From NCBI GenBank assembly GCA_045657625.1, contig JAZOTM010000003.1:5574-69573 (forward strand): DNA of 64,000 bases, in the 5' to 3' direction. The position numbers were made by a program, and so were the translations under genes. The notes under the pieces are model-generated. The model ran no database searches. It was not told the origin of the DNA and worked only from the letters and a program-made list of their open reading frames with translations. Below, in pieces: positions 43,291-61,311 of the stretch. The DNA comes from Lachnospiraceae bacterium. GTDB lineage: Bacteria; Bacillota; Clostridia; Lachnospirales; Lachnospiraceae. Every line of letters begins with the position of its first letter. Position 1 is the stretch's first letter.

Positions 43291-43334
43291 AAAAAAAAGG
43301 CTTTTCTTCCGAATTGGAAGAAAAGCCTTTTTTT
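43291..43334. terminator. Bidirectional terminator between convergent genes
   Basis: AAGGCTTTTCTTCC-GAATT-GGAAGAAAAGCCTT, flanked by A8 and T6. Confidence 0.85.
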
Positions 43335-45181: not shown

Positions 45182-47833
45182 ATGCAGGATTATTTAGGGA
45201 GAGTAGATGTTTCAATGGATGATTATAGTCAGGCATTATTAGACAGTAATGTCATGCAGGAATTACAGGATCGTTTTTGTAGAGCGCAAAACGTCTACGC
45301 AGTATGTTTCAGTCGCACCCAGGGACTTGTGACAAAGGCATACGGGAGCAAAGAAGAACATTCCTATCTTTATGAGCGAATCGATATGGGGATTTATATG
45401 GATTTAATGAATCGGCTCATAAGCTCGGATTTGGAGAGCGTGGTGGAAGCGGATGTGGCAGATCCGCATTTGAAGTGTTGTGGTGTGGCAGTCCGCATAG
45501 AGGATTCCATTGCTGCGATTTGGGTTGTCATGGGGGTGATAGCCGATGAAGCAGACGAGGAAATTCCGGATTACATAGCAGTAACTTCAGAAGAGCGTTT
45601 TTATCATTGCTTGGAGTTCTTGGAGAGTTTATCGAAACAGTTTTTGCAGTCTAAGTTAAAAGAACTGTTTATCGAAGAAAAGTATCAGCGGACAAAGGAA
45701 GCACAGGAAGAAGTAGAGCTACAGCTGAAGCGAAATGAGGCAGTGACCAGCATTGTGCAGCAGTTGGAAAGTGACGAAGAATTTTCTGTGATTGTGAAGG
45801 ATATCTTACAGGAGGTTTGTACCTATCTGGATATCAGTAGTGCTTCTTTATTGCGTTATGAAAAAGACAATGCATATTTGGATGTCATTTGTGAATATGT
45901 TTCAAAATCAGGAGTATCTTACAAGGATCGGGGACAGCATGTGCCAAGGGAAAAACTACCCTTTGCAACAGGAAAACCCTATATTATTTCCGCCGGATCC
46001 ATGAAGCCGGTGGAATTCGAGACTTTTTTCCAAAAAGAGGCGATTCTTGCAGGCGTGAGTCTTCCGATAGAAATCAACGGAAAAGTCAGCATGTATGTTT
46101 GCTTCGTGGAAAATACCGTGGATCGTACCTGGGAAAATGCGGATTTGAAGTTTTTGAATGATGTAAAACAGATCATTCAGAGTATTTTATCCAAGAGAAT
46201 TGCAAAGAATTCATTGGCTAGTTCTTATGCGTCCTTGGAGGCTATTTTGGAAAATGTGGGTTGTGGTATTTATGTGACCGATCGCTTTAGCGGCAAGATT
46301 TTATTCCGCAATCAGACTTTTCGGGATATGTTCCAGAATTCCGGTGAAGATGTGCGGATTCAGGACATTATCGGAGAAGTATCTGAAACAGAGCAGGAGT
46401 TCTCGGAAATCTTTATGGATGCAGAGGACGGCTGGTATGATGTACGGCATATTCAGATTCACTGGGTAGATGGTAGAGAAGTCGATTTGTATACGATTTA
46501 CGATATCACTGCCAAGAAAAAGAGTCAGCAGGAGATTGAACGTCAGGCCAATAACGATTATTTGACCGGACTTTACAATCGTCGTCGTTGCGAAGAAGAT
46601 TTGGCAAAATATATTGCGCAGTGCAAGGAGTTCCGCGGAAATGGAGCCCTGTTGTATATGGATTTGGATGATTTTAAGCATATCAATGATGGCTTAGGAC
46701 ATCAGTACGGAGATGTATTGCTTCGTTCGATTTCTCATTGTCTGCAAAATATTAACGGTATTGAAAATACCTGCTATCGTATGGGCGGCGATGAATTTAC
46801 GGTTATTTTGCCTTACCATCAAGTGCATCTGCTGGATCAGGTGTTGGATGAAATTCGTGGTATTTTTGCAAAGCCATGGTATTTGAAAGATCGGGATTCT
46901 TATTGTTCCATCAGTATCGGTGTTGTGCGGTTTCCGGAGAGCGGAGATGATGTGCAGGATCTGATAAAAAAAGCAGATATTGCTTTGTACGAAGCAAAAC
47001 GCCAAGGAAAAAATACGGTGGTCATGTATGACGATAAAGTGGAGCTTACTTCTTTCCGACGCATCGATATGGAAAAGAATTTGCGTGAAGCGGTGATTAA
47101 TGGTTGCCGTGAATTTGAAGTTTATTACCAACCGGTAGTGAATATTCAGAGTCCCGGAAATCCTTGCCATGGAGCGGAGGCTTTGATTCGTTGGAATTCC
47201 GAGAATCTTGGTATGGTTAGTCCGGTGGATTTTATTCCGTTGGCAGAGTATTTGCGTTTGATCAATCCCATTGGGGACTTTATTTTGGAAGAGGCGTGCA
47301 AACGTTGCAAATATTGGAATGATTATGGACATCCGGAGTATCGCATCAATATTAATTTGTCTGTGGTACAGCTTTTGCAAAACGATATTGCAGAGCGAAT
47401 TCGAAATGTCATTCGCCGTACCCAGGTGAAACCTACCAATATTACTTTGGAGGTTACGGAAAGTCTGGCTATCAGTGATATGACACGTATGAAGAAGGTA
47501 TTGGCAGAGATCAAAAAAGTCGGTGTTTGGATTGCTTTGGATGATTTTGGAACCGGCTATTCTTCCTTGAATCATATTCGGGAATTGCCGATTGATATTA
47601 TTAAAATTGACCGCTGCTTTGTAGTGGATATTGGAAAAGATGAATATTCCGAAGTCTTCGTCAAAATGGTAACAGAACTTTCAGAGACCTTAGGCGTGCA
47701 GGTGTGCGTAGAAGGGGTGGAAGAAGATGTGCAGTTTGACAAAATTCGGGAAATGAACGTGCAGTTTATTCAGGGTTATTATTTTGATAAGCCGATGACT
47801 GCAGAAGCTTTTGAAGCGAAGTATTTGAAATAA
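45182..47833 (+). CDS. Multidomain GAF/PAS-GGDEF-EAL c-di-GMP protein
   Basis: YRMGGDEFTVIL, EALIRW and DDFGTGYSSL. Both catalytic motifs look intact. Confidence 0.9.
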   Translation: MQDYLGRVDVSMDDYSQALLDSNVMQELQDRFCRAQNVYAVCFSRTQGLVTKAYGSKEEHSYLYERIDMGIYMDLMNRLISSDLESVVEADVADPHLKCCGVAVRIEDSIAAIWVVMGVIADEADEEIPDYIAVTSEERFYHCLEFLESLSKQFLQSKLKELFIEEKYQRTKEAQEEVELQLKRNEAVTSIVQQLESDEEFSVIVKDILQEVCTYLDISSASLLRYEKDNAYLDVICEYVSKSGVSYKDRGQHVPREKLPFATGKPYIISAGSMKPVEFETFFQKEAILAGVSLPIEINGKVSMYVCFVENTVDRTWENADLKFLNDVKQIIQSILSKRIAKNSLASSYASLEAILENVGCGIYVTDRFSGKILFRNQTFRDMFQNSGEDVRIQDIIGEVSETEQEFSEIFMDAEDGWYDVRHIQIHWVDGREVDLYTIYDITAKKKSQQEIERQANNDYLTGLYNRRRCEEDLAKYIAQCKEFRGNGALLYMDLDDFKHINDGLGHQYGDVLLRSISHCLQNINGIENTCYRMGGDEFTVILPYHQVHLLDQVLDEIRGIFAKPWYLKDRDSYCSISIGVVRFPESGDDVQDLIKKADIALYEAKRQGKNTVVMYDDKVELTSFRRIDMEKNLREAVINGCREFEVYYQPVVNIQSPGNPCHGAEALIRWNSENLGMVSPVDFIPLAEYLRLINPIGDFILEEACKRCKYWNDYGHPEYRININLSVVQLLQNDIAERIRNVIRRTQVKPTNITLEVTESLAISDMTRMKKVLAEIKKVGVWIALDDFGTGYSSLNHIRELPIDIIKIDRCFVVDIGKDEYSEVFVKMVTELSETLGVQVCVEGVEEDVQFDKIREMNVQFIQGYYFDKPMTAEAFEAKYLK

Positions 47834-47846
47834 GGGAGATTTGAGA

Positions 47847-49142
47847 ATGAAAAAGCTTCGGGAAAAGAAAGGAAGAGATTTATACTGGGACAGATTAGAC
47901 AACACCGCAAATCTCTTCCCGGTGATTGCCGGGGAAACGCTGACAAACGTATATCGTATTTGTGTGACACTGACAGAAGATGTACAACCGAATTTACTAC
48001 AGGAAGCTCTTGATTTGGTATTACCCAAGTTCAAGGGCTTCAATTTGCGTCTACGTTTTGGTTTGTTTTGGTTTTACTTTGAAGAAAACGGAAAGGCTGC
48101 ACCGCGGGTGCACAAGGAAAATAATTATCCCTGTCGTTACATTCGAGAAAACCGTAACAACAACTATTTGTTCCGTGTGACTTATTACAAGAATCGCATT
48201 AATTTGGAGGTGTTCCATGCTTTGACAGATGGCATGGGCGGCTACAATTTTTTAACGGAATTGACTTATCAGTATTTGCGATTGTCTCATCCGAAATTAC
48301 GGAAAAAATATGGAGACGCCTTGTCTCCAAACACTTCCTTAAACCGTGAAGATAGCTTTTTGAAAAATTGTCCCAAGCGTAAAAAAGGAAAAGCCTATGG
48401 TTCCGGAAAGGCCTTTTTGATGAATGGAGAAAGACTTCCAAAAGGGGAGTTTGGCGTTATGCATGTGTATGTGCCTGTGGCAGAGATCAAAAAGACAGCC
48501 AAGAGTAAAGGCGCCAGCATCAATGACTTTTTGGTGGCGAATACGATTTATGCGATTTATATGGAGCAGTATCGAAATCGTAGAAAAAAAAGACCGATTC
48601 GAATTTCGGTACCTGTAAATTTACGCCCTTATTTTGAATCCATTACTACAAAAAACTTTTTTGTCATGGTTTCCATTGAGTTTGAACCTCAGAAAGAGGA
48701 ATACACGTTTGATGAGGTCTTGGAAATTACAAAAGAGGAAGTGCGAAAGAAAATTACGAAAGAGAATTTGGAAATCACGGTTTCCTACAATGTGGCAAAG
48801 GCGGAAAATATCATTGGAAAATTTGTTCCTTTGCCTTTGAAAAATATTGCTATGAATATTGTTTATCGTTTTATTGCAAGGGCCAATACCACTACGGTGA
48901 CCAACATTGGAGCTTTGAAGGTGGAAGAAGCATACGCACCGTACATTACGATGTTTCATGGTATTTTATCTGTATCCCAGGGGCAATTGTTGAAGGGAAC
49001 GATTTGCTCGTATGGAGATACCTTGGTATATACTTTTAGTACCCTGTATAAGGATACAGGAATAGAAAAGCGTTTTTGTAAAACCCTAGTGGAAGAGGGG
49101 ATTTCTGTAAGGGTGGAAAGCAATGGCGTTTTCCAATTGTAG
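47847..49142 (+). CDS. Condensation-domain-like acyltransferase (HxxxDG)
   Basis: FHALTDGMGG active-site motif. Starts 8-14 nt after the GGDEF-EAL stop (TTG 47841 or ATG 47847). Confidence 0.65.
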   Translation: MKKLREKKGRDLYWDRLDNTANLFPVIAGETLTNVYRICVTLTEDVQPNLLQEALDLVLPKFKGFNLRLRFGLFWFYFEENGKAAPRVHKENNYPCRYIRENRNNNYLFRVTYYKNRINLEVFHALTDGMGGYNFLTELTYQYLRLSHPKLRKKYGDALSPNTSLNREDSFLKNCPKRKKGKAYGSGKAFLMNGERLPKGEFGVMHVYVPVAEIKKTAKSKGASINDFLVANTIYAIYMEQYRNRRKKRPIRISVPVNLRPYFESITTKNFFVMVSIEFEPQKEEYTFDEVLEITKEEVRKKITKENLEITVSYNVAKAENIIGKFVPLPLKNIAMNIVYRFIARANTTTVTNIGALKVEEAYAPYITMFHGILSVSQGQLLKGTICSYGDTLVYTFSTLYKDTGIEKRFCKTLVEEGISVRVESNGVFQL

Positions 49143-49153
49143 AAATTGTATTT

Positions 49154-49187
49154 GTGTGACTGCGGTGTGACTAAGTCAACTTATACT
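49154..49187 (+). promoter_or_regulatory. Heptamer-repeat promoter P1
   Basis: GTGTGAC (49154), N4, GTGTGAC (49165), N10, TATACT (49182). No TTGACA-like -35. Confidence 0.65.
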
Positions 49188-49229
49188 TTGAATGAAAATC
49201 CAAAAGTATATTTTGGGGAGGAGACTTTA

Positions 49230-49925
49230 GTGAAGAAAAAAACAGTGATACTTGGGGCGTTGCTTGTGGCTGTGGTGGCTGTTTCAGTAGGTGCTACTTT
49301 GGCGGTGACTGTTCTGGGTGGTACAGAGGATACCGCGCAAGAAGCGGATATTCAAATAAATGATATTGGTATCGTATTTACAAATACAGGTACGGAAACC
49401 GTTGCACTTGGAACCGGCAAAATTGTTCCGGGAGACGAAGTGGAAGTGCATCAGAGTGTTGCCAACCAAGTAGATGGAGACGATGGATACGATATTTATT
49501 TAAAAGTAGAGATTGATAAGTATTGGAAAGACGAAGATGGCGACTATATGGAATTCGATTCCGATGTGGTGGCAGATCGTTTGTTTGTGGAGGTAGACGG
49601 CGTATCTACTGAGATTCCTTATTTGGAAGAAGGAGAGCAGACACAGCTTGGCAACTGGATTTTGACTGAGTCAGATATGGATCATGTGGTGATGTTTTAT
49701 ATCTATCCATTGCAGCAAGGCGAAGAAACAACTGAATTTATTAGTTCTATCTTGTTTGACGGTTCCATAGATAACAGTTTTTCGGGAATGTCTTACAGCA
49801 TTGAAGCTACCGGTACAGCAGTGCAGGCTACCAATGGAGAGGCAGCTGTTGCAGCGGAACTTGGTATGTTCTTGACGTTTGACGAGGATGGAACCATTCT
49901 TTCTATCAGTGAAAGCAAAGAATAA
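49230..49925 (+). CDS. TasA/camelysin-like secreted protein (paralogue 1)
   Basis: Preferred start is GTG 49230 (SD GGGGAGGAG). Signal is KKKTVILGALLVAVVAVSVGATLAV. PGDEV strand and C-terminal IEATGTAVQATN. The track's upstream ATG 49146 would lie inside promoter P1. Confidence 0.65.
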   Translation: MKKKTVILGALLVAVVAVSVGATLAVTVLGGTEDTAQEADIQINDIGIVFTNTGTETVALGTGKIVPGDEVEVHQSVANQVDGDDGYDIYLKVEIDKYWKDEDGDYMEFDSDVVADRLFVEVDGVSTEIPYLEEGEQTQLGNWILTESDMDHVVMFYIYPLQQGEETTEFISSILFDGSIDNSFSGMSYSIEATGTAVQATNGEAAVAAELGMFLTFDEDGTILSISESKE

Positions 49926-49953
49926 TGGGACCGGAATGAGAGGAGAGACGAGG

Positions 49954-50748
49954 ATGAGAAAAAAACTTGGGACATTTTTGTTGACTTGTTGTATGACCAT
50001 ATCTTTGCCTGCTTTGGTAAATGGAGATACCGTAGATTTGACTGTGGTAAACAACGACACTTCCATCACTTTTGATGGAGACCTTTCGGATGCCTTTTCC
50101 GGTATTATGCCGGGCGGTACGGAAACAGTTGTGATTTCCTTGACCAACAACGGTAGTCAAACTGGCAATTATTATATGACACAGTCCACATTAGAGACAT
50201 TGGAAGAGACAAGTAGCGGCTCCGGTGGAGCTTACGCTTATACCGTGACGGTGGGATCCAGTGAAGAGGATGCCACGGTTCTTTTAGATACCAGCACCGG
50301 TGGATATACAGAGGCGGATACAGCAAGCGGCACAGACCTTAGCTCTATTACAGAATTAAATGGTTATACGTATTTTGCTACGTTGGCACCGGGGGAAAGT
50401 ACCAACGTATATATGACATTGACTTTGGATGGGGAAGGATTTGATAGTGTCACAGACAATGATTATTCCAATTCTTCTGCAGCCATTTCCGTAAATTTCC
50501 GTGTACAGTTTGAAAGTGCACAGGGCGGTACTACCACAGTGGTGACGCGTTACGTAGAACAGACAGGAGCGAATACCTTTGTAAATACAATTTTGGAAGA
50601 AGTAATTCCATTGGCCGGAGGAGTACAGACCGGAGATCCGTTCTCCATAGGGGTGTTGGCCCTTCTTCTCGGCGGAGGTATTTTCTTGATTGTAATAGCT
50701 GTGAAAAAGCAGATGGGAGAGCAGACACATGAAGAAAAAATTTCCTAA
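49954..50748 (+). CDS. Secreted protein with C-terminal VQTG sorting signal
   Basis: Preferred start is ATG 49954. Has a Sec signal ...LPALVNG. C-terminus is PLAGGVQTGD + hydrophobic helix + KKQ (VQTG codons 50623..50634). Confidence 0.7.
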   Translation: MRKKLGTFLLTCCMTISLPALVNGDTVDLTVVNNDTSITFDGDLSDAFSGIMPGGTETVVISLTNNGSQTGNYYMTQSTLETLEETSSGSGGAYAYTVTVGSSEEDATVLLDTSTGGYTEADTASGTDLSSITELNGYTYFATLAPGESTNVYMTLTLDGEGFDSVTDNDYSNSSAAISVNFRVQFESAQGGTTTVVTRYVEQTGANTFVNTILEEVIPLAGGVQTGDPFSIGVLALLLGGGIFLIVIAVKKQMGEQTHEEKIS

Positions 50749-51700
50749 AATCCTTTTGTTTGTCTTTTCATTAAGTATCTTTTTCTTTGTCCTGCCTATA
50801 AGCGTTTGGGCGGAGGAAACTTATACCATTACGTTTCGCGCAGGGAATGCCCGTACTTTTGATGTAGAGACACTTGCGTTCGAAGCTTATGAAAACGTGG
50901 AAGTCAATGAGAACTACGTCAAGATTCAAGTGGAGGTAAAAAAAGGTACTACCATCGGAGATGCGTTGGGACTCACCAATGAAGAACTAACAGCGGTAAT
51001 TCAAAGTGCACTTTCTGAGGATGGCAATGAGACCTATGCATTACGGACTTTAACGTGTGCAGATACAGAACTGATTAAGAACACCGATGTGGTATTGGAT
51101 TATAGTCGTATTGTAAATCCGGTTTCCTATTCCATTTCTTATGTGGATGCTACCGGGAATGCTATTTATCCATCAGTAATGGCCTATGGAAGTGAAGGCG
51201 AAGAGATTACAGCTTCCCCGCTCACGATTGCTTATTACGAGACAGAGGATACCGAAAAGACCATTGTATTGACAGCAGGAGAAACCAATGCCATTGTCTT
51301 TACTTATACATACACCGGAACGATTTCAAATACGGAGATTACCAATTTGATTCCGATTTATATTCCGGGGACGACGACTTATACTACGACGGTGAATACG
51401 GTTATACAGGATGCCGGGACGACGGTGACCAATGTGGCCGGTGGTGGAGCAGCGAATGCGCAAGCAGGAGCCGATGTAGATGATGAAGAAGAGGAAATTT
51501 CGGATGAAGAAACTCCGTTAGGCGGAGATGGTGAAGGACTTTTGAGTAATATTCTAGGCGAAGAAACACCTCTTGCAGCGCTGGTAGAAGGAAACAGTGT
51601 TTTGGTTCCGGCGGTGATAGGAGTGGTGGCAGCCTTGGTTGTGGTAGGCTTATTCTTTATTCAGAAGAAAAAAAGCAAATATGTTCAAGAATCTAAATAA
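50729..51700 (+). CDS. Surface protein with MucBP-like repeat and C-terminal TM anchor
   Basis: Signal peptide ...ISVWAEE. YSISYVDATGNAIY...IVFTYTY beta-rich module. T-rich linker. EETPLG / EETPLAA motifs, then TM + KKKSK. Confidence 0.65.
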   Translation: MKKKFPKILLFVFSLSIFFFVLPISVWAEETYTITFRAGNARTFDVETLAFEAYENVEVNENYVKIQVEVKKGTTIGDALGLTNEELTAVIQSALSEDGNETYALRTLTCADTELIKNTDVVLDYSRIVNPVSYSISYVDATGNAIYPSVMAYGSEGEEITASPLTIAYYETEDTEKTIVLTAGETNAIVFTYTYTGTISNTEITNLIPIYIPGTTTYTTTVNTVIQDAGTTVTNVAGGGAANAQAGADVDDEEEEISDEETPLGGDGEGLLSNILGEETPLAALVEGNSVLVPAVIGVVAALVVVGLFFIQKKKSKYVQESK

Positions 51701-51806
51701 TTTATTAAACATCCGTTTTTTACTGGAAAAACGGATGTTTTTTTGTTACAAAAAAACTAATTATGATATAGTAGTAGGGGTTGAGAGAGAGAAACGGGGA
51801 GCATAA

Positions 51807-53003
51807 ATGATTGTTCATACATTGGGAAAGTTTCAAATAATTGAAAAGGAAGCAGTTGTGACAGATGATAGTTTGAACTCGGCGATGATGATGAAACTGT
51901 TTGTTTTTTTGATTTTGCATCGAGATCAAGATGTCAGTGTGGAAGAATTAGCGGCTGCCTTATGGCCGGGGGACGAATCGGATAGTCCTGCGGGAGCTCT
52001 AAAAAATTTAACGTATCGTTTGCGAACGACGTTAAAAAAGAATTTTGGGGAATCCACTTATATTTTATCGAATCGAGGTTCTTATCGTTGGAATCCGGAG
52101 ATTCCGTTAACGGTGGATGTAGAAGAATTTGAGGAGTACTTGAAAGCGGCTCGGGAAAAAGAGGACATGGAGGAGATTATTCATGATTATGAAGAAGCCA
52201 TGTTGCTGTTTAAAGGAGACTTCATGAGCTGTATTCAAGATACACATTGGGCTGTTACTTTAAATACTTACTATCATGGACAGTTTTTACAATTGACCAA
52301 GGATTTAGAGGATTTATATCTCGAACAGGAAGATTATGTTCGTATGGAGCAGCTGGCTGGCGAGGCTCTCAAATTAGACAATCTGGATGAGGATTTGTAT
52401 TACTATTTAACCTTAGCCAAGATGAAACAAGGGCAATACCGTCAAGCACTGGAAGTTTATGAAACAGGATGTCGTATTCTGGAGGTAGAACTTGGAGTGA
52501 AACGTCCAAGACGATTGAATGAATTATACGGGGAGCTGCTAAAGGTGAATAAAACCAAGCAGGAAGAAGATATTATACAGGTGCAGACGGATATGCAGGA
52601 AGAAGAACCGGAAGGTGCTTTTTTTTGCGGATACCCGGTTTTTCGGGAAATATATCGATTGGAAGCTAGAAAAATATTACGCAGCGGGGAGTCAGAGCAT
52701 GTGTTGCTTTTGACGTTGCGTACTGTGGAAGCACCTACGGAAAAGGCGCGACAGTATCGTATAAAAAAAGGCATGGAACTTTTAAAAACGATTTTGGGAA
52801 CTAGTCTTCGTGTAGGGGATGTGGCTGCAGAATATAGCGATTCACAATATGTGATTTTGCTTCCGACCTGTACATATGAGGGGGGCATGATTGTGGCGGA
52901 TCGAATTATCTCACGTTTTCAAGAACTATCTAAGCAAAAGGAGAGCGTTCAGATTTTGCCGAGTTTAGTGGAAGTTGGGTTAGCGAAAGATATATTGGAA
53001 TAG
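51807..53003 (+). CDS. SARP/BTAD transcriptional activator fused to a degenerate GGDEF domain
   Basis: wHTH (VSVEELAAALWP, LTYRLRTTL), BTAD (AMLLFKGDF..., ALEVYETGCRILEVELGVKRPRRLNELYGELL). C-terminal RVGDVAAEYSDSQYVILLP aligns to RxxD-x5-GGDEF-VILLP. Confidence 0.8.
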   Translation: MIVHTLGKFQIIEKEAVVTDDSLNSAMMMKLFVFLILHRDQDVSVEELAAALWPGDESDSPAGALKNLTYRLRTTLKKNFGESTYILSNRGSYRWNPEIPLTVDVEEFEEYLKAAREKEDMEEIIHDYEEAMLLFKGDFMSCIQDTHWAVTLNTYYHGQFLQLTKDLEDLYLEQEDYVRMEQLAGEALKLDNLDEDLYYYLTLAKMKQGQYRQALEVYETGCRILEVELGVKRPRRLNELYGELLKVNKTKQEEDIIQVQTDMQEEEPEGAFFCGYPVFREIYRLEARKILRSGESEHVLLLTLRTVEAPTEKARQYRIKKGMELLKTILGTSLRVGDVAAEYSDSQYVILLPTCTYEGGMIVADRIISRFQELSKQKESVQILPSLVEVGLAKDILE

Positions 53004-53012
53004 TTAGGAGAC

Positions 53013-53441
53013 ATGCGTATGGAACAACAGTATCCCAAAAATGGATTTCGTGTATGTGTGGACAAAGTGGAGAACGACGTAGAGGGCAGAATTTATTCTC
53101 CGTTGTTTAAGGACAAAAAACCTTTTTCCTCTTTTGCAGAAGTGATTTTAGTTATGGATAATGTTTTCGATGCAACGGGATATCCTCATGCATTTCAAGA
53201 AAGTAGAAGTTTTGTGGAACGTCGGGGCACAAAGCCTTATCAACCGAAGAAACAGGAAGAGATTCCAAGACGCAGAGTAGAAGATCAAAAAGGAAAAGTG
53301 TATACGGTTGATATTGTAGTATTAGAACGGCGCGGCAGTAGTTGGCAAGGTGTTGCGAGAAATACGAATACCGGGGAAGAAAAAGAATTTCATAGTGAGA
53401 TGGAACTGTTTGAAATGGTTCGAAAAGAATTAGATCAGTAA
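53013..53441 (+). CDS. Small protein with two copies of a beta-beta-WQG-helix module
   Basis: Coupled 9 nt after the regulator. Its C-terminal half resembles the 59358..59585 product. Confidence 0.6.
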   Translation: MRMEQQYPKNGFRVCVDKVENDVEGRIYSPLFKDKKPFSSFAEVILVMDNVFDATGYPHAFQESRSFVERRGTKPYQPKKQEEIPRRRVEDQKGKVYTVDIVVLERRGSSWQGVARNTNTGEEKEFHSEMELFEMVRKELDQ

Positions 53442-53469
53442 AGGATGCTTTTTGGCATCCTTTTTTTTA
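53442..53469 (+). terminator. Intrinsic terminator
   Basis: AGGATGC-TTTTTG-GCATCCT followed by T8. Confidence 0.8.
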
Positions 53470-53478
53470 CTTTTTTCT

Positions 53479-53512
53479 GTGTGACCGACGTGTGACTTGA
53501 GATTGGTATAGT
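53479..53512 (+). promoter_or_regulatory. Heptamer-repeat promoter P2
   Basis: GTGTGAC (53479), N4, GTGTGAC (53490), N10, TATAGT (53507). Confidence 0.65.
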
Positions 53513-53589
53513 GGAACACATATAAAGGGAAGTTTGTGAAAGAGTTGTAATAACGAGTACCCTCGAGTTGGATGGAGGAAAAGAGGAAC

Positions 53590-56500
53590 ATGAGGAGAGT
53601 TTGGAAATCGATTCTGGCAACCGGTCTGATTGCAAGCATGAGCTTAGGCGAATTATCGACTGTTTACGCCTCAGAAACCCAAGAATCAATAGATACGAGC
53701 ATATATATGGAGTCTCAGGAAAGCACTGAGACTTCTTCTGATGTTGTAATAGATGCCGATACGACAGAAAGCACTGAGGTGGCTGCAGAGTCCACGGAAG
53801 GCACAAGCGAAGCAACCACAGCTACAACTAAAGCTACAGAGGATATTGCTGATGCCACAGAAGAGACATCTGCAGAAGTAAGGGAAGCAGAGTTGTCCTT
53901 TACTTCGAATGTTGCATCTGATGGCGTGACAGTTACTATTTCCGGTCCGGAAAGTGCATTTCCTTCTGCAGCACTTACGGTTGCTCTTGAAGTAAAAGAA
54001 GACGACGATTACATTGAAGAAGTTGTTTCTGCGTCAGATGTTTCCATTGCAGACTATGTGGCATATGACATTACACTACTGGTGGATGGCGTAGAAGTAG
54101 AACCCCTTGGAGAGGTGTCTGTTGTTTTTTCTGCAAATACATTAGGAGATGCTTCCGCAGAAGTTTATCATGTAAACGAAGAAACAAATACTTTGGATGC
54201 TGTGACAGAGACCAGCGTTACAGAAGATTCCATTTCCATGACTACGGATCATTTTTCTACCTATTTGGTTGGAGCTAGCGATACCAGATGGGGAGTACAA
54301 ACAACTTATGGGTATATTCAAACGGATAAAGATCCGAAGAATGGTGACTATAGTATTGTAGGAGAAATCTATTATAATGGGCAAAAAATAGATAGCTCTG
54401 ATGAAAAAATATTTAAATCCAAGACCCATAAATTTACTGCAGTTGCAGCGGAAGGTTATACTTTAGAAAAAGTAACCTATTATTATACTTATGCATATTA
54501 TTATGATAATTGGAGTAATGGTCAAACGGAAGAAAAGGTTTGGGACTGCTCCCAAAGTTTTACTATGGAGTATAAATATAATTCATGGGAATATGATGAG
54601 GGAAAAAATGACTATAGAGGATATTTTGTTTTACATGTCAGAGCTTATTTTGTAGATAAAACGAAAAGTGTAGATGTCGCTTTTACTACCAAAAACAGCA
54701 TGACAGAAAATGTGATTCAGGGGGTATCCTTTTCTTTAGCTGGAGAAGATGGCACTACATATACAGCAACCTCCGATTCTTCCGGAGATGTGTCATTTTC
54801 AGGTATTCCGCTAGGAACTTACACCTTAACAGAAAATCAGTTGATGGGTTATGAAACACCAAATCACACCTGGACAGTAACTGTGACAGAAACAGATACT
54901 TATACCATTGTCAGCGACAGTACGGAAGAAGCGGACTTGGAAGGCAGCTACAGTGAAGGTTATGTAGTATGGATTACACCACAGACAGAACCGGTGGTTT
55001 CTACAGATAAAGATACGGATCTTTATGATTGGGATAATCGTATTTATCAAGTGAAACTTGAAGGCAGTGCGATGCAGCAGGTGGTAGAGACAGCCTCAGA
55101 ACCGGTAAATGTGGTTCTGGTTTTGGATATGTCAGGGTCCATGCTATTTCCGAATGATTTAACAAATGAAACAACCATGTATATCTGGAACTTGGACACA
55201 TCTAAAACTTACTATTATATTGTTGAAGATGAGGCAGGTACTGTTTACACCGTACAGTATCGTACGGAAAGCGGTGTCAGTGGATGGTATTACAAGGATT
55301 CCTCTTATGTTTACGCAAATTCTGGGCAAAGTTGGACCTTGATTACTGACAAGTCTTCTGTACTAAATTACTACAAATCTTATAAGTTTTATACATCTCC
55401 TTCCGTGGGGGCCAGTATTCGTTTACAGGACACAAAGGCTGCAGCAGAATCTTTTATAAAAACTTTGGCAGAAGCAAATGAAAAGAATCAAGTAGCAATT
55501 GTAACTTTTGCAAAAAGTACTTCATCAAAAACAGAAATTGTTTGTGGTTTAACTGAATTAAGCGAGAGTAATGTGGAAACATTATTAAGTGAGATAGAGG
55601 GATTATCAACAGATGGCGGTACCAATCAGTATGCAGGACTTGAACTTGCAAATTCAATTTTAACATCGAACACGGAATCGGCAACTGATCATTCAGCAAT
55701 TGTATTGATTTCTGACGGTACCATTAATGAAAATGTAGAAGATTCCTATAAAGAAACACAAATCAGCACAGCACAGTCATTAGCAACGGTTTACACCGTT
55801 GGTATTGATATTAATGTGAATGCTACGGTGAAAGAAAAAGCGTCTACTTTGTTAAAAGAAATCGCTACGGATGAAAATCGATTCTATGAGGTTGGTTCAG
55901 ATGCTTTACATGCAATCTTATCAAGTATTGCAGTGGATATTCTTGGAAGTATTCCGTTGACAGCGACGGTTGTAGATTATATCGATGAACGGTTTCAGTT
56001 GGTGGATACTTCAGGAAATGCGCTGAGTGTAGGAGATACAATTTCAGCAAGACAAGTGACGGATGGTAAGATTGTTACCATTAACGGTACCATTGGTGAA
56101 GATGAAAATGGCGTATATGTAAAATGGGAAAGCGATGGCTTAAATGGTTTTATTGCTGAATTTTATGTGCAGGCCAAGGAGGATTTCCTAGGTGGCTATG
56201 TGGTAAAAACCAACGAGCTTGTTTCGAATATTACTGCCACATCTACAGAGGGAGAAATTGTCAGTGAAACTTTTCCGGTACCAACTGTAAATGTGAAACT
56301 CCTGGATTTGAGTATGGGGGATTTAAGTGAGACTCTTTTTCTGGGAGATGAGATTTCTTCCGGTGAGTTTGCAGAGGCATTGAATGAAACCATTCTTTTT
56401 AATGAAACAAATGGAAGCTTACAATTAACAGTGGCACAGATTGCCACCTTAATGGAAACAGGAACGGTGGAAGTTCCATATTCCTATGGTGACACCAATG

Positions 56501-57297
56501 ATGCGGTAGGTACTTTGACTTATACCTTGACTTGTTCCGGAGATACCGCTTCTTTGGAAAATCATACAGCCACAGTGGTTGGAGATAATGTGGAGACCTA
56601 TACCTTAAAGGTGAGTTATACACCATATACCTTAGAAGCAAGAAAAAATACGGCAACAACTGCAGGGTATGTGGTACCAAACAGCAGTTTTAATGGCCAC
56701 ACATTGAAAACTTCCAAAGAAACTTCAGGAAAGTATGTGATTTCTGTAGTAGCAGGAACCATTACCATTACAAAAACAATTTCCAAAGAGGACTATAAGG
56801 AAATTAAGGGAGATCCAATTTTTACCTTCCAAATCAAAAACACGACTACCGGAGATGTATATTATAAAACTCTTCGATTTACCAGTGGGGTGGAAGAGAC
56901 AAATGGAAATTATACTTTGTCTGTTGTGCTTACGGATATGAAGAGAGGCATCTATGAGGTTACGGAGCTTTCAACTATGCGGTTTACTTTAGATGAAGTG
57001 ACGATTTCTTCCAGCCAAAAGCAATTACCATCCAAGAGTATGGAAAACGGATATTGTTTTGCTATTGGATATTCTTCTACGGCTGCTGACACAGCATTAG
57101 AAACCCTTGCTTATAAGGATGCAACCATTTCTTTTGTAAACAGTATGGAAGTAGAAAACTATTTCTCAGATACGGACGTGGTGGTAAATACTTATCGGGT
57201 ATCTGATGGAAAAGTAATTTCCGGTGCAGAGGTACAGGATCGTTTAAATGGTTCTGCTAAGATTTACAGTGCTGCAGATTTCACAACAGTGGAGTAA
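53590..57297 (+). CDS. Large secreted vWA-domain / Cna-B-like adhesin without a recognisable anchor
   Basis: Signal peptide RRVWKSILATGLIASMSLG...VYASE. MIDAS DMSGS (55126..55140). Cna-B-like GTYTLTENQLMGYETPNHTWTVTVTE. The alternative start is ATG 53572. Confidence 0.8.
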   Translation: MRRVWKSILATGLIASMSLGELSTVYASETQESIDTSIYMESQESTETSSDVVIDADTTESTEVAAESTEGTSEATTATTKATEDIADATEETSAEVREAELSFTSNVASDGVTVTISGPESAFPSAALTVALEVKEDDDYIEEVVSASDVSIADYVAYDITLLVDGVEVEPLGEVSVVFSANTLGDASAEVYHVNEETNTLDAVTETSVTEDSISMTTDHFSTYLVGASDTRWGVQTTYGYIQTDKDPKNGDYSIVGEIYYNGQKIDSSDEKIFKSKTHKFTAVAAEGYTLEKVTYYYTYAYYYDNWSNGQTEEKVWDCSQSFTMEYKYNSWEYDEGKNDYRGYFVLHVRAYFVDKTKSVDVAFTTKNSMTENVIQGVSFSLAGEDGTTYTATSDSSGDVSFSGIPLGTYTLTENQLMGYETPNHTWTVTVTETDTYTIVSDSTEEADLEGSYSEGYVVWITPQTEPVVSTDKDTDLYDWDNRIYQVKLEGSAMQQVVETASEPVNVVLVLDMSGSMLFPNDLTNETTMYIWNLDTSKTYYYIVEDEAGTVYTVQYRTESGVSGWYYKDSSYVYANSGQSWTLITDKSSVLNYYKSYKFYTSPSVGASIRLQDTKAAAESFIKTLAEANEKNQVAIVTFAKSTSSKTEIVCGLTELSESNVETLLSEIEGLSTDGGTNQYAGLELANSILTSNTESATDHSAIVLISDGTINENVEDSYKETQISTAQSLATVYTVGIDINVNATVKEKASTLLKEIATDENRFYEVGSDALHAILSSIAVDILGSIPLTATVVDYIDERFQLVDTSGNALSVGDTISARQVTDGKIVTINGTIGEDENGVYVKWESDGLNGFIAEFYVQAKEDFLGGYVVKTNELVSNITATSTEGEIVSETFPVPTVNVKLLDLSMGDLSETLFLGDEISSGEFAEALNETILFNETNGSLQLTVAQIATLMETGTVEVPYSYGDTNDAVGTLTYTLTCSGDTASLENHTATVVGDNVETYTLKVSYTPYTLEARKNTATTAGYVVPNSSFNGHTLKTSKETSGKYVISVVAGTITITKTISKEDYKEIKGDPIFTFQIKNTTTGDVYYKTLRFTSGVEETNGNYTLSVVLTDMKRGIYEVTELSTMRFTLDEVTISSSQKQLPSKSMENGYCFAIGYSSTAADTALETLAYKDATISFVNSMEVENYFSDTDVVVNTYRVSDGKVISGAEVQDRLNGSAKIYSAADFTTVE

Positions 57298-57309
57298 GGG
57301 AGAGGGAAA

Positions 57310-57915
57310 ATGAAAATAAAGTGGAATAGAATAACAAAAAAAACAGCCCTCCTAATTGTAGCAGTGGTTGGAATATTGACAGTGGGAGTGGGAAGTACCT
57401 ATGCAGTGGTTTTATCCCATACTGCAAATACAGTGACGAATACTTTTACCATTGGCTCCGTGGAGACGGAGATTTATGAAGATACCTCTTCCTACGGGAC
57501 CAAAACCGTACAGGTGGTAAATACCGGAGATAGCCCCTGCTTGATTCGCGTGAGAGTCCATGTATCACCGGAAGATGCAGGCGTGACCATTACCGGGTGG
57601 GATACGGAACACTGGTCTACTTTACAGGAGGACGGTTACTATTATTATTTAGGAGTCCTGTCTGATAAAGGAGAAAATGCTACTTATTATGCTACACCGG
57701 CATTGTTTACCGGTTACACTGTAGCAGGTGTTGATGAAAATGGAAATGTGGAAGATGGAACGACTGTTCCGGATTTTTCCATTACGGTTTATCAGGAAAG
57801 CATTCAATACGAAGCGACCAATGAAGTCGGAGAAACCCTAACAGTCTATGATGAAAATGGGAACTTTTCTTTGGCGCAGGCCAAAGAGTTGTATGCCCTA
57901 TATGAAAGTAAGTAA
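57310..57915 (+). CDS. TasA/BsaA-like protein with SipW-type signal peptide (paralogue 2)
   Basis: ...LLIVAVVGILTVGVGSTYAVVLSHTANTVTNTFTIGSVETEIYED. C-terminal FSITVYQESIQYEA. Confidence 0.75.
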   Translation: MKIKWNRITKKTALLIVAVVGILTVGVGSTYAVVLSHTANTVTNTFTIGSVETEIYEDTSSYGTKTVQVVNTGDSPCLIRVRVHVSPEDAGVTITGWDTEHWSTLQEDGYYYYLGVLSDKGENATYYATPALFTGYTVAGVDENGNVEDGTTVPDFSITVYQESIQYEATNEVGETLTVYDENGNFSLAQAKELYALYESK

Positions 57916-57937
57916 GAGAAAGTGAAAAGGAAGTATT

Positions 57938-58450
57938 ATGATTCAGAAGATATGTAATGTGTTATCTACAATGATTTTAATAGTTTTATTACTGATGGCA
58001 GCGGCTTTGTTTGTGCCGAAACTTCTGGGGATGAACGAGTATGCAGTGTTGACCGGAAGTATGGAACCTACCATTTCCGTTGGATCTTTGGTGTATGACT
58101 GGGAATTCGAGGAGACTGAATTAGAAGTTGGTGATATTGTGACCTATCAGATTTCCGAAGGAACCTTGGTGACGCATCGAGTAGTGGAAATCAATGAAGA
58201 AGAGGCAACAGTTATTACCCAGGGAGATGCCAATAATGCAGAAGATGCAAATCCGGTACCTTTTGAAAATATTGTAGGGGTATGTACTTTTCATATACCG
58301 GCCTTGGGATATATTTCTATTTACATGAGAACCGGTTTGGGGATTGGCGTGATTTGCGGAATTGTTGTAGTGATTTTGTTATTAAACTATTTACCGGACC
58401 TGCTTTCAAAAGAGAGTAAGAAAGCTGTTACTGAAAAAGAAGAAATTTAG
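57938..58450 (+). CDS. sipW: Signal peptidase I, SipW (archaeal/ER) type
   Basis: N-terminal TM, LTGSMEPTISVGSLV (catalytic Ser), VTHRVVEI (His), C-terminal TM. Confidence 0.85.
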   Translation: MIQKICNVLSTMILIVLLLMAAALFVPKLLGMNEYAVLTGSMEPTISVGSLVYDWEFEETELEVGDIVTYQISEGTLVTHRVVEINEEEATVITQGDANNAEDANPVPFENIVGVCTFHIPALGYISIYMRTGLGIGVICGIVVVILLLNYLPDLLSKESKKAVTEKEEI

Positions 58451-58454
58451 AATT

Positions 58455-58488
58455 ATATGACCATGGTGTGACCAAGGCTTGTTACAAT
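58455..58488 (+). promoter_or_regulatory. Heptamer-repeat promoter P3
   Basis: ATATGAC (58455), N4, GTGTGAC (58466), N10, TACAAT (58483). Confidence 0.55.
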
Positions 58489-58534: not shown

Positions 58535-59191
58535 ATGAAAAACAAGAAATTAGTTGTAACTTTAGGCGCTGTAGCATTGATCGCTGCAATTGGGGTAGGC
58601 AGTACTTTTGCATATTTGACAGCTACCACAGACACTGTTACCAATACTTTCACAATTGGTGAAGTGACTTTCACAACTCCGGATCCAGATCCAAATGATC
58701 CAGATTCCAGCATCAATTCCGGACTTGTAGAATCTGCTGTAGAAAGAGATGAGACCGGTGCATATGTAGATGCTGACGGAGATGATACATGGACTGTTAC
58801 CGGAAATGATTATACAGATGTATTACCTGGCGAAGTGATTTACAAAGATCCTACCGTTCTTGGTTTGACAGAGGATTCTGTTGATGCATATGTATTTGTT
58901 ACCGTTGCAGGCGAAGATGAAAGCCTTAGTGTAACAGAATATTCTAGCGAATGGACAGAATTAGGTAAAACTGACGATGGAAAGACTGTATTATATCGTG
59001 TATATGACAGTGCTGATGCAAAAAAAACTCCATCTACTATTTTCAGTTCTGTAACAGTTTCTACTGATGCAGATGAAGATACTGAGTTTACAGATATTGT
59101 AATTAATGCATATGCAATTCAGATGGCAGGCTTTGATTCACCAGAAGCTGCATTCGCTCAGTTTTCTGAACAGGCAGGAACATTAAAATAA
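58535..59191 (+). CDS. TasA/BsaA-like protein with SipW-type signal peptide (paralogue 3, own promoter)
   Basis: MKNKKLVVTLGAVALIAAIGVGSTFAYLTATTDTVTNTFTIGEV. C-terminal FTDIVINAYAIQMAGF. SD AAGGAGAG. Confidence 0.8.
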   Translation: MKNKKLVVTLGAVALIAAIGVGSTFAYLTATTDTVTNTFTIGEVTFTTPDPDPNDPDSSINSGLVESAVERDETGAYVDADGDDTWTVTGNDYTDVLPGEVIYKDPTVLGLTEDSVDAYVFVTVAGEDESLSVTEYSSEWTELGKTDDGKTVLYRVYDSADAKKTPSTIFSSVTVSTDADEDTEFTDIVINAYAIQMAGFDSPEAAFAQFSEQAGTLK

Positions 59192-59357
59192 ACTGAAAAA
59201 ATAAATACTTTTCAGAAAACAATATTTTTGGTATAATTATATGGAATATGTGAAATGAATTTGCTTTATAAAAGGATTTTCAATGGAAGTGTAAGGATAC
59301 CGGACGATGGAAGTCGTCTCGAAGGGCCGTTTTAGCGGAACGGTCGAAAGGAGCAAG

Positions 59358-59585
59358 ATGAAAAAAACGTCATTAGGCAACAGCCAAAACTTTGTAGTTA
59401 CAGTGCGTAGCCAAGAGAATCATACTTGGCAGGGAACCGTTTCCTGGGTAGAAGGGAAACAGCAGTCAAATTTCCGAAGCGTTTTGGAATTGTTGCATTT
59501 GATGGACTCTGCAATTACTCCGGAGGAGGAAGATGTAGAAGACTTGATGAATGATTCGAAGACGATGGAAGAAGTAGAAAAGTAA
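59358..59585 (+). CDS. Small protein, single beta-beta-WQG-helix module
   Basis: Preferred start is ATG 59358 (SD AAAGGAG). Sequence QNFVVTVRSQENHTWQGTVSWVEGKQQSNFRSVLELLHLMDSAI. Confidence 0.6.
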   Translation: MKKTSLGNSQNFVVTVRSQENHTWQGTVSWVEGKQQSNFRSVLELLHLMDSAITPEEEDVEDLMNDSKTMEEVEK

Positions 59586-59592
59586 TCAAGAC

Positions 59593-59629
59593 GGATGGAT
59601 TTGAGAAGACTCAAATCCATCCTTTTTTT
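59593..59629 (+). terminator. Intrinsic terminator
   Basis: GGATGGATTTGA-GAAGAC-TCAAATCCATCC followed by T7. Confidence 0.85.
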
Positions 59630-59761: not shown

Positions 59762-59887
59762 CGTCATAGGAAGGTTTGACCTAAAAATACTTTTGGATTT
59801 TTTATGATATAAATTCTTAATTATGATAGACTAAGGGTAGTTGTTTTGACAGAAAAGGAAAGTTGGCAGGACATAAAGGACAGTGAC

Positions 59888-60628
59888 ATGAAGAAAAAGA
59901 AGGGAAATGCACTTTTATTTCTAGGAGTGCTATTGGTTTTGGCCGGATTAGGATATCTTGGTTATATGTTTTACAGTTATAAAAAAGCAGAGGATGCTTT
60001 CGCTGAAATTGCGGATACTTACGTAGAGCAGCAAGAAGAGGAGACACAGTGGTGGGAGACATTATCCATTGACTTTGAAGGCCTGAAAGAACGAAATCCC
60101 GACGTAATTGGATGGATTTATATGCCGGGAAATGAATACATCAATTATCCTATTTTACAAGGAGAAGATGATGATACCTATTTGCGAAGGGATTTGGATG
60201 GCAATGCTTCTTCCAGTGGATCGATTTTTATGGAGACATTAAATGCCAGTGATTTTTCAGATTATCATACCATTTTGTATGGGCATAATATGAGAAATAA
60301 ATCCATGTTTGGGTCATTGAAATTATTCAAAGACGAATCTTATTATGAAGAGCATAGTATCTTCTATATTTACACGGAGAATGCGGCGTATTGCTACACC
60401 ATCTTTTCTTATCATGATGTGCCGGAGGATAGTTCTATTTATACTATTGGGTTCCAACCGGGTGAAATCTATGAAGCCTTTTTGGAAGAACTGCTTCGTG
60501 CATCCTATTATGATTGTGGTGTGGAAGTAAACGAGGAAGATCAAGTGGTGACATTATCGACCTGTTCTGCTACCGGGTATCGTTTTGTGGTACATGGTGT
60601 TTTGACGGAAATCCATGTATATGAATAA
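59888..60628 (+). CDS. srtB: Class B sortase
   Basis: N-terminal TM, DVIGWIYMPGNEYINYPILQG, ILYGHNM (His), TLSTCS (Cys), RFVVHG (Arg). Preferred start is ATG 59888; the track ORF starts at TTG 59846. Confidence 0.85.
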   Translation: MKKKKGNALLFLGVLLVLAGLGYLGYMFYSYKKAEDAFAEIADTYVEQQEEETQWWETLSIDFEGLKERNPDVIGWIYMPGNEYINYPILQGEDDDTYLRRDLDGNASSSGSIFMETLNASDFSDYHTILYGHNMRNKSMFGSLKLFKDESYYEEHSIFYIYTENAAYCYTIFSYHDVPEDSSIYTIGFQPGEIYEAFLEELLRASYYDCGVEVNEEDQVVTLSTCSATGYRFVVHGVLTEIHVYE

Positions 60629-60645: not shown

Positions 60646-61311
60646 ATGAGTTATTGTAAGAATTGTAAAGTAGAAATCGGTGATCAGACCAGTGTTTGTC
60701 CTTTGTGCCAAAATGTTATGGAGGAAGGACCTAAAGTAGAAAATATGTATCCGGATATTCGCCAATTAGAAAAGAAAGTGGCGCTGGCATCTCGAATTTA
60801 TATTTTCCTTGCTATTTTAACAGAGGCAATTCTGGTTCATATAAATGCGACACTTACTCCGCAAATATGGTGGAGTGCCATTGTGGGTGGTGCCTTTTTG
60901 TTGATATATATTGGATTGAAACTGTTGATTGAGTATGAGTATACATATCGCAGCCGTATTTTTCTATTAACCATTGCAGGAACGGCTTATTTGGTTTTGA
61001 TTGACTATGTCGTTGGATTTTATGGCTGGTCTTTGGAATTTTGTTTGCCATCCTTTATTTTGGCGATTGATGTAGTGATTGCATTTTTGATGATTTTTAA
61101 TCGTAGAAATTGGCAAAGCTATATGACTTGGCAATTGGTGATGCTGGGTTGGAGCTTTTTAAATATGTTGTTGATTTATATTGTGCATGGACATATTTAT
61201 TTCATGGTGTATATTGCGGGAGCGATTACTTTTTTCTTTTTCCTTGGAACGTTTATCATTGGGGGAAAGAGATCTGCGGCAGAAATGAAACGTCGCTTTC
61301 ATATTGATTAA
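60646..61311 (+). CDS. Zinc-ribbon membrane protein, unknown function
   Basis: CKNCK..x..CPLCQ followed by 5 TM helices. Confidence 0.6.
   Translation: MSYCKNCKVEIGDQTSVCPLCQNVMEEGPKVENMYPDIRQLEKKVALASRIYIFLAILTEAILVHINATLTPQIWWSAIVGGAFLLIYIGLKLLIEYEYTYRSRIFLLTIAGTAYLVLIDYVVGFYGWSLEFCLPSFILAIDVVIAFLMIFNRRNWQSYMTWQLVMLGWSFLNMLLIYIVHGHIYFMVYIAGAITFFFFLGTFIIGGKRSAAEMKRRFHID

Follow-up and report, generated by a model that had tools for sequence, protein, structure and literature searches.

A 64-kb stretch of Lachnospiraceae bacterium DNA (contig JAZOTM010000003.1 of assembly GCA_045657625.1; "the window" below means this whole stretch of 64,000 nucleotides) contains a cluster of genes for secreted and surface proteins, together with a gene, 51807-53003, for a 398-residue regulator of the SARP type. 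Three promoters of the cluster, designated P1, P2 and P3, all intergenic and, like the regulator gene and the other genes of the cluster, on the plus strand, carry a box of two heptameric direct repeats. An earlier, sequence-only reading of the window had drawn attention to this arrangement, that is, two GTGTGAC-like heptamers separated by 4 bp and followed, after a further 10 bp, by a -10 hexamer, and had proposed that the repeats are sites for a SARP-family activator encoded in the middle of the locus.

Promoter boxes P1, P2 and P3

P1 (49154-49187; GTGTGACtgcgGTGTGACtaagtcaactTATACT) has the layout GTGTGAC-tgcg-GTGTGAC-N10-TATACT, with its upstream repeat at 49154-49160, its downstream repeat at 49165-49171, and its TATACT hexamer at 49182-49187. 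P2 (53479-53512; GTGTGACcgacGTGTGACttgagattggTATAGT) has the layout GTGTGAC-cgac-GTGTGAC-N10-TATAGT, with repeats at 53479-53485 and 53490-53496 and an extended -10 element, TGgTATAGT, at 53504-53512. P3 (58455-58488; ATATGACcatgGTGTGACcaaggcttgtTACAAT), which starts 4 nt past the stop codon of the sipW gene, has the layout ATATGAC-catg-GTGTGAC-N10-TACAAT, with ATATGAC at 58455-58461, GTGTGAC at 58466-58472, and TGtTACAAT at 58480-58488, and differs at two positions from a perfect GTGTGAC pair. The sequence thus reads as claimed at 49154, 53479 and 58455. By their positions, P1 is predicted to drive the genes at 49230-51700, P2 those at 53590-58450, and P3 the gene at 58535-59191, with a transcript that probably extends to 59307-59585. 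Separately, a 13-nt inverted repeat (85% complementary, 13-nt gap) at 49177-49215 overlaps the P1 -10 element and the start of the predicted 5' untranslated region; it may be due to chance.

The three promoters lack a usable -35 element, as the sequence-only reading had stated: the best match to TTGACA at a spacer of 16-18 bp is 2/6 for P1, 3/6 for P2 and 1/6 for P3. Pairing of the heptamer is confined to the same three places. A search of the window for GTGTGAC-N4-GTGTGAC with up to 3 mismatches returned sites with 2 or fewer mismatches at P1, P2 and P3 only; the remaining three matches have 3 mismatches each and no -10 element. As a single word, GTGTGAC occurs 11 times in the window (4.0 expected), and 5 of these occurrences are within P1-P3. 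The isolated words, at 25227, 32582, 37901 (minus strand), 39813, 47962 and 48175, comprise the two that had been noticed by eye, at 47962 and 48175, and four more, and none is paired, in agreement with what had been said of them. Scoring with a position weight matrix trained on boxes from related loci of other species gives 32.9 bits for P1, 42.5 bits for P2 and 33.6 bits for P3, and no other site on either strand of the window exceeds 12 bits.

The geometry of the boxes can be compared with that of characterised SARP targets, in which direct repeats are 11 or 22 bp apart and the 3' repeat is 8 bp from the -10 element (PMC10936776). The afs box, the target of AfsR, consists of two 11-bp repeats that span -40 to -19, with a poor -35 element at -38 to -33 and a -10 element that ends at -7, and each AfsR protomer contacts the first 8 bp of an 11-bp repeat (PMC10936776). 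When the hexamers of P1-P3 are placed at -12 to -7, two GTGTGACYnnn units (22 bp) span -40 to -19, as in the afs box, a -35-like GTGACY falls at -38 to -33, and each 11-bp unit contains 8 conserved positions. The distance from heptamer to -10 element is 10 bp here versus 8 bp in the rule for classical SARP targets; this difference is only one of where the heptamer is drawn, and the two systems agree in the 11-bp frame of AfsR. The claimed SARP promoter architecture is supported by the 11-bp period, the fixed phase to the -10 element, and the location at -40 to -19.

Conservation of the box in related loci and in metagenomes

For phylogenetic footprinting, a check that the sequence-only reading had named, we used the regulator alignment as query against one genome per GTDB species and obtained 80 related loci (1.34 Mb; individual loci are identified by L numbers). 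Their regulators are 34-52% identical, and the loci are nearly all from Lachnospiraceae (Roseburia, Agathobacter, Lachnobacterium, Acetatifactor), with a few from Oscillospiraceae or Erysipelotrichaceae. The GTGTGAC-N4-GTGTGAC pattern, with 2 or fewer mismatches, occurs in these loci 110 times on the strand of the regulator versus once on the opposite strand. Gaps other than 4, scanned over 0-26 bp, give 0-12 matches, and 60 permuted heptamers give a mean of 3.7 matches and a maximum of 13. In 101 of 113 sites a TAnnnT element, which the search did not require, follows at precisely N10. The box is kept in 56 of the 80 loci, before orthologues of the same three operons: the first downstream gene is the orthologue of the 49230 gene for 31 distinct sites, of the 53590 gene for 32, and of the 58535 gene for 14, and is occasionally the gene for SipW or for orf92. 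The conserved synteny comprises the 49230 gene, orf2, the MucBP protein gene, the regulator gene, orf142, the vWA protein gene, the 57310 gene, the SipW gene, the 58535 gene, orf92, and the sortase gene.

Conservation extends to positions that were not selected by the search, namely Y at repeat position 8, TA at positions 3-4 of the -10 element, and an A/T-rich tract just upstream. Each promoter class also has its own character across species: P1-class sites have perfect repeats and TATAaT, with the TGn motif in 0/31; P2-class sites read aTGTGACC.acgTGTGACT, with a TGn extended -10 element in 27/32; and P3-class sites have weaker repeats. Three loci contain two complete boxes, each with its own -10 element, 76-84 bp apart (L021, 13707/13791; L023, 11944/12026; L043, 11498/11574), which precede the large first gene after the regulator gene (in L021 and L043, this gene is the vWA orthologue). 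In a single species (L063, 6547) the regulator gene, too, is preceded by a box.

Four Oscillospiraceae loci have the same geometry with variant heptamers, WTGTRAC-N4-WTGTAAC-N10-TAnnnT, in this case upstream of a divergently transcribed orf92 homologue. A de novo search for heptamer repeats in the 24 box-less loci returned nothing convincing beyond these Oscillospiraceae variants. In five loci (L038, L040, L046, L059, L068) sipW and sortase genes follow the regulator gene directly, an intergenic promoter is lacking, and the surrounding ±10 kb are free of boxes; these loci are a different wiring of the same components.

In the reverse direction, a scan of metagenome contigs for the exact box plus TATAnT identified at least 120 loci with 121 sites. 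Among the matches listed, 28 of the 121 sites are upstream of 49230 or 53590 orthologues, and the regulator is present in 19 of the 120 loci. The other listed sites belong to a few very abundant human-gut site families and are located about 80-105 nt before a start codon, that is, at promoter-like distances. They include boxes upstream of a 1727-residue Big_3 Ig-like surface protein (L081), of a Cna/SpaA pilus operon with sortase (L112), of a 798-residue secreted protein (L126), and of a transglutaminase-like protein (L129). Orphan sites are also found beside an EssC-like ATPase gene (L092) and beside a CsoR-copA operon (listed metagenome loci L092, L103). Since most listed metagenome sites have no regulator nearby, linkage of box and regulator is not obligatory, and the gene assignments suggest that the boxes may define a dispersed regulon of surface proteins.

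The regulator and the genes of the cluster

The regulator comprises an OmpR-type winged helix-turn-helix (wHTH) domain at about residues 1-100, a BTAD domain at about 103-245, a linker at 249-267, and a degenerate GGDEF domain at about 268-398. The Pfam BTAD match, over residues 103-245, scores 64.9 bits versus a cut-off of 22.1, and the Pfam Trans_reg_C match (E 6.6e-5) scores 23.3 bits, just below its cut-off of 26.2. NCBIfam gives weak AfsR/SARP matches and weak diguanylate-cyclase matches, the latter at 327-393, and a profile of the regulator family aligns residues 31-248 with the SARP domain of AfsR at E 6.5e-6. An AlphaFold (AF2) model built from 65 homologues has a predicted local distance difference test score (pLDDT) of 86, with the 249-267 linker disordered. 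The best matches of this model in a Foldseek search of the PDB are AfsR transcription initiation complexes, 8K60 and 8HVR (TMt 0.76-0.78, root-mean-square deviation 3.2-3.4 Å, about 250 columns), and EmbR is matched as well. The regulator family, at E 1e-30 or lower, contains 649 representative clusters (50% identity), and homologues carry pipeline annotations such as "BTAD domain-containing" or "SARP family". The BTAD score and the modelled structure together support a SARP-domain fold, in keeping with the SARP-type gene that had been reported at 51807-53003. The regulator and its conserved neighbours contain no match to the receiver domain, Response_reg.

Residues that would contact DNA point in the same direction. 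In the cryo-EM structure of AfsR, W74, R87, S91 and R94 contact the DNA backbone, T88 reads repeat position 5, and R92 reads repeat position 3 (PMC10936776). AfsR W74, R87, T88, S91, R92 and R94 align with W53, K66, N67, Y70, R71 and R73 of the regulator, and all six of these residues are invariant across the regulator family. In the Oscillospiraceae regulators Thr replaces Asn at the equivalent of AfsR T88, and the box of the same loci varies at repeat position 5, a hint that box and recognition helix may covary.

The P1 operon opens with a gene (49230-49925) for a secreted 231-residue protein with a weak BsaA/TasA-family match (TIGR04090, BsaA; E 1.4e-5, under the cut-off), orthologues of which are downstream of a box in 36 loci. 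It continues with a gene for a second secreted protein (49951-50748; syntenic in 38 loci), with a C-terminus of IPLAG, a transmembrane segment and a basic tail that resembles a sorting signal, and with a gene for a MucBP-like surface protein (50729-51700), with a C-terminus of TPLAA, a transmembrane segment and KKKSK; the shared (I/T)PLA(G/A)-hydrophobic-basic termini are sorting-signal-like in a non-LPXTG form. A terminator follows at 51707-51740.

The regulator gene is preceded by a sigma-70-like promoter without a heptamer box (51743-51772; TTGTTA-18-TGaTATAGT; a consensus match only), and is followed by orf142 (53013-53441), which encodes a small, 142-residue protein with a WQG...F.S..EL domain of unknown function, has a homologue in 31 of the 80 related loci, and is probably co-transcribed with the regulator. 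A terminator at 53440-53463 follows orf142. The first P2 target (53590-57297) encodes a 1235-residue secreted protein with vWA and SpaA/prealbumin-fold domains. Next in the P2 operon are a gene for a 201-residue protein with a SipW-type N-terminus (57310-57915), a paralogue of the 58535 gene, and a gene for a SipW-type signal peptidase I (57938-58450; TIGR02228, 106.4 bits versus a cut-off of 51.85; Bacillus SipW equivalog, 95 bits versus a cut-off of 190). The P3 target (58535-59191) encodes a 218-residue protein with a SipW-dependent-type signal peptide (TIGR04088, 23.1 bits versus a cut-off of 19). It is followed by orf92 (59307-59585), which encodes a small, 92-residue WQG-domain protein, and by a terminator (59593-59622). 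Downstream, genes for a sortase (59846-60628) and a DUF6320 membrane protein (60646-61311), both on the plus strand, are conserved members of the cluster without boxes of their own.

The products of orf142 and orf92 share a domain (…V.V.S.EN.(T/S)WQG.V.W……F(R/H)S.LEL..L…) that has no Pfam or NCBIfam match and that occurs also in L074, L075, L077 and L078. The orf92 core is 60-80% conserved, and orf92, a member of the regulon, has its own heptamer box in other taxa (L009, L058, L060, and likewise the Oscillospiraceae, where it is divergent from the regulator gene). The WQG-domain orf92 protein is a candidate partner or feedback element.

The claim that the boxes precede TasA-like operons holds in part. 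The SipW peptidase, the vWA protein and the SipW-type signal peptide are solid; "TasA-like" is weakly supported, by the TIGR04090 match, and the putative fibre proteins have no Pfam match and no PDB sequence match. An AF2 model of the 58535 protein from three paralogues in the window was unusable (pLDDT 39), and homologue searches with orf142 and with the 49230 protein returned the query itself only.

Three further genes are located upstream of P1. A gene on the minus strand (43333-44985), directly upstream of the cluster, encodes a 7TMR-DISM GGDEF protein, an enzyme of cyclic di-GMP (c-di-GMP) metabolism, and a plus-strand gene (45182-47833) encodes a PAS-GGDEF-EAL protein with GGDEF and EAL motifs both intact. 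The PAS-GGDEF-EAL protein is a candidate source or sink of signal, and the GGDEF-EAL gene keeps its syntenic place in several related loci (L003, L007, L010, L027, L033, L036). The third gene (47841-49142, plus strand), for a 433-residue protein with faint C-terminal similarity to wax-ester synthase/acyltransferase, stops 11 nt before P1; because it is found in none of the 80 related loci, we place it outside the conserved cluster.

The sequence-only reading, which is supported as to the SARP type of the regulator, had overlooked its C-terminal degenerate GGDEF domain. The regulator contains RVGD at 335-338 and, five residues further on, SDSQY at 344-348; in alignment with an active cyclase (4URG), RVGD corresponds to the RRSD I-site and YSDSQY to YGGDEF. 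Foldseek matches of the C-terminal part are GGDEF domains (3EZU, WspR, SadC, DosC), the family profile matches GGDEF cyclases weakly over residues of about 290-390, and some homologues have a precomputed PF00990 hit. RxxD is retained in 80/80 related loci (one as R-V-A-D, one as R-V-S-D), followed by residues of the S-x-x-Q-[YF] type. Among 140 full-length representatives (clusters at 50% identity), RxxD is retained in at least 125, and the 5-mer equivalent to GGDEF, mainly S-x-x-Q-[YF], was recovered by regular expression in at least 125; canonical GG[DE]EF is absent from the 25 commonest 5-mer forms in this set. From these motifs the domain is predicted to be catalytically dead, with its I-site intact.

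Three features, namely the dead A-site beside a conserved I-site, the adjoining GGDEF/EAL genes, and the matrix/adhesin outputs, are the ground on which we propose that the domain may sense c-di-GMP and thereby gate activation, a proposal to which we give slightly less than even odds. A rival of nearly equal standing holds that the regulator activates, with the GGDEF-like domain used for dimerisation, for binding a partner such as the WQG proteins, or for binding another nucleotide. Strong conservation of the S-x-x-Q-[YF] replacement at the A-site and of the segment GVFFCGYPVFREIYRLEARK points to a new function, WQG-domain proteins are linked to the regulator by probable co-transcription and by co-regulation, and an intact RxxD is no proof of c-di-GMP binding. 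On the side of c-di-GMP are the canonical distance of RxxD in at least 125/140 representatives, the GGDEF/EAL genes next door, and the matrix and adhesin outputs, which are typical of this second messenger. A c-di-GMP riboswitch as explanation is ruled out by an Rfam scan of the whole window at gathering scores, which returned no RNA family.

Proposed mechanism, alternatives and comparison with known systems

We propose, with a probability of roughly 0.7, that P1, P2 and P3 are activator-dependent sigma-A promoters in which a SARP-type box, occupied by two copies of the regulator, stands in for the -35 element. The 22-bp box (GTGTGACYnnn x2), at about -40 to -19, would substitute for the -35 element, and two molecules of the SARP-type protein of the cluster would bind to it side by side, each protomer inserting one recognition helix (K66, N67, Y70, R71, R73) into a major groove. 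In AfsR complexes, sigma region 4 docks on the SARP dimer, an arrangement termed "sigma adaptation" (PMC10936776); surfaces of the wHTH and BTAD domains of the present regulator could likewise recruit and position RNA polymerase, with sigma region 4 docking on them. The output would be activation of three operons for SipW-processed fibres, a vWA adhesin, sortase substrates and a small WQG-domain protein. If the C-terminal domain binds c-di-GMP, the ligand at RxxD could hold two protomers together across the 249-267 linker, whose flexibility would make a symmetric, ligand-bridged GGDEF pair compatible with DNA-binding domains arranged head to tail, and matrix/adhesin expression would be tied to the c-di-GMP level set by the neighbouring GGDEF/EAL enzymes.

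Several observations weigh against this proposal. Binding, the positions of the transcription starts, and activation rest on sequence and on model inference. The Trans_reg_C match is under the Pfam cut-off, and the match to AfsR in sequence is a weak one (E 6.5e-6). No box is present in the scanned DNA of 24 of the 80 regulator loci, some of which are incomplete and others organised differently, and most of the listed metagenome box loci have no regulator within about 14 kb. The extended -10 element of the P2 class can act without a -35 element, which makes activator dependence less certain for that class. The covariation of box and recognition helix represents a single lineage with four sites, that is, one independent event.

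An alternative that we regard as unlikely is that the boxes are bound by another OmpR/PhoB-type winged-helix protein, for example a phosphorylated response regulator encoded elsewhere. The pho box of PhoB consists of 7-N4-7 direct repeats located 10 bp upstream of the -10 element, in place of the -35 element, and is bound by tandem winged-helix domains. The 7-N4-7-N10 layout here is that of the classical pho box, so geometry alone cannot single out SARPs, and exact boxes are found in metagenome contigs far from any regulator gene. The response regulator is nevertheless disfavoured, because the conserved gene set contains no protein with a receiver domain. Box and SARP-like gene, moreover, co-occur at fixed syntenic positions in 56/80 species, the family-invariant residues coincide with the DNA-contact residues of AfsR, and the variant box is accompanied by a variant recognition helix. 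The regulator itself, unlike OmpR/PhoB response regulators, lacks a receiver domain and has a BTAD domain and a SARP fold.

Marginally less likely still is that the SARP-like protein acts at the boxes as a repressor or dual regulator that occludes the -35 region of promoters for which a -10 element, extended or not, suffices. In favour are the overlap of box and core promoter, the TGn extended -10 element, potentially independent of a -35 element, in 27/32 P2-class sites, and the control of tapA-sipW-tasA of Bacillus by repression. P1-class promoters, however, have neither a -35 element nor TGn (0/31) and would be very weak on their own; the strict spacing to the -10 element (101/113) fits recruitment, whereas occlusion would tolerate variable spacing; and characterised SARPs act as activators from the same position.

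It is highly improbable that the repeats arose by chance or from composition, or that they form part of a promoter read by an alternative sigma factor: the heptamer does hold TGAC, a partial -35-like core, but chance is excluded by shuffles, permuted heptamers and gap scans, and the distances of the heptamer cores from a sigma-A-type TATAAT hexamer, 9 and 20 bp, are not used by any factor of the sigma-70 family. Three other readings were rejected. P1-P3 share no flanking inverted repeats, as invertible promoters would. The repeats are direct, not inverted, and phased to the -10 element, which does not fit a site of the CRP/FNR type, for all that TGTGA is a CRP half-site. The gap scan shows the 11-bp period only, which does not fit LytTR-type repeats (9 bp, about 21-bp spacing).

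Full-text literature searches returned no description of the regulator family, the box, the regulon or a SARP-GGDEF fusion. Activation of the promoters by the SARP-type regulator would bring a Streptomyces-type mechanism, with c-di-GMP as a possible gate, into major gut commensals, and a large family in gut Bacillota with SARP promoter geometry would make sigma adaptation a general bacterial strategy. The cis-element GTGTGACY-N3-GTGTGACY-N9-TAnnnT would then serve as a predictor of co-regulated surface structures in Roseburia/Agathobacter-type commensals, which are genetically hard to study and in which adhesion and aggregation matter for colonisation. A bolder proposition, which we put forward tentatively and hold to be less probable than gating as such, is that the 649 or more clusters (50% identity) of the regulator family are SARP activators gated by c-di-GMP, and that in abundant butyrate-producing gut Lachnospiraceae (Roseburia, Agathobacter, Lachnobacterium, Acetatifactor) RxxD-bound c-di-GMP licenses two SARP modules to occupy a GTGTGACY box at -40 to -19 and to recruit sigma-A polymerase. 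If this proposition is true, SipW-processed fibres, vWA adhesins, sortase pili and giant Ig-like surface proteins would be products of one dispersed regulon turned on in this way, with small WQG-domain proteins as dedicated partners or feedback elements. It would be the first case of a protein-based c-di-GMP transcription switch with such architecture, and of a defined SARP regulon beyond the Actinobacteria.

The regulator resembles I-site c-di-GMP receptors with degenerate GGDEF domains, such as PelD and PopA, and c-di-GMP-responsive transcription factors, such as VpsT, FleQ, BldD and MrkH, in having a dead A-site with RxxD five residues upstream and in its biofilm-matrix outputs. Unlike all of these, it has the degenerate GGDEF domain fused to a SARP module, and its c-di-GMP binding is putative. 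In Clostridia, riboswitches are the main known route by which c-di-GMP controls surface proteins; binding of c-di-GMP and activation dependent on it, if true, would tie the second messenger to matrix production via a protein, not a riboswitch. The cluster resembles tapA-sipW-tasA of Bacillus and sipW-bsaA of Clostridium perfringens in having a gene for a SipW-type peptidase beside genes for proteins with SipW-type signal peptides, and a sortase and vWA adhesin context is present as well. It differs in the absence of a TasA match at the Pfam or PDB level for the putative fibre proteins, and in its proposed regulation via a SARP-type box, not by repression of the SinR/AbrB type.

SARPs are described in the literature as "mainly found in actinomycetes", and their historical scope, actinomycetes and secondary metabolism, does not cover the present loci, which are from Lachnospiraceae, Oscillospiraceae and Erysipelotrichaceae and have surface-protein targets. 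Relative to the SARPs of Streptomyces, the host here is a gut anaerobe of the Bacillota, not an actinomycete; genes for surface fibres, adhesins and pili, not antibiotic clusters, make up the targets; the repeat is GTGTGACY; the promoters are AT-rich, with a near-consensus TATAAT and often an extended -10 element; and the C-terminal addition is a degenerate GGDEF domain, versus NOD/TPR in AfsR and FHA in EmbR. What the regulator shares with AfsR and with small SARPs (ActII-ORF4/DnrI) is the predicted wHTH plus BTAD fold with conserved DNA-contact positions, and what its promoters share with those of AfsR is a box of two direct repeats, offset by one helical turn and conserved at about 8 bp of each 11-bp unit, placed at -40 to -19 over a non-functional -35 element and in fixed phase to the -10 element.

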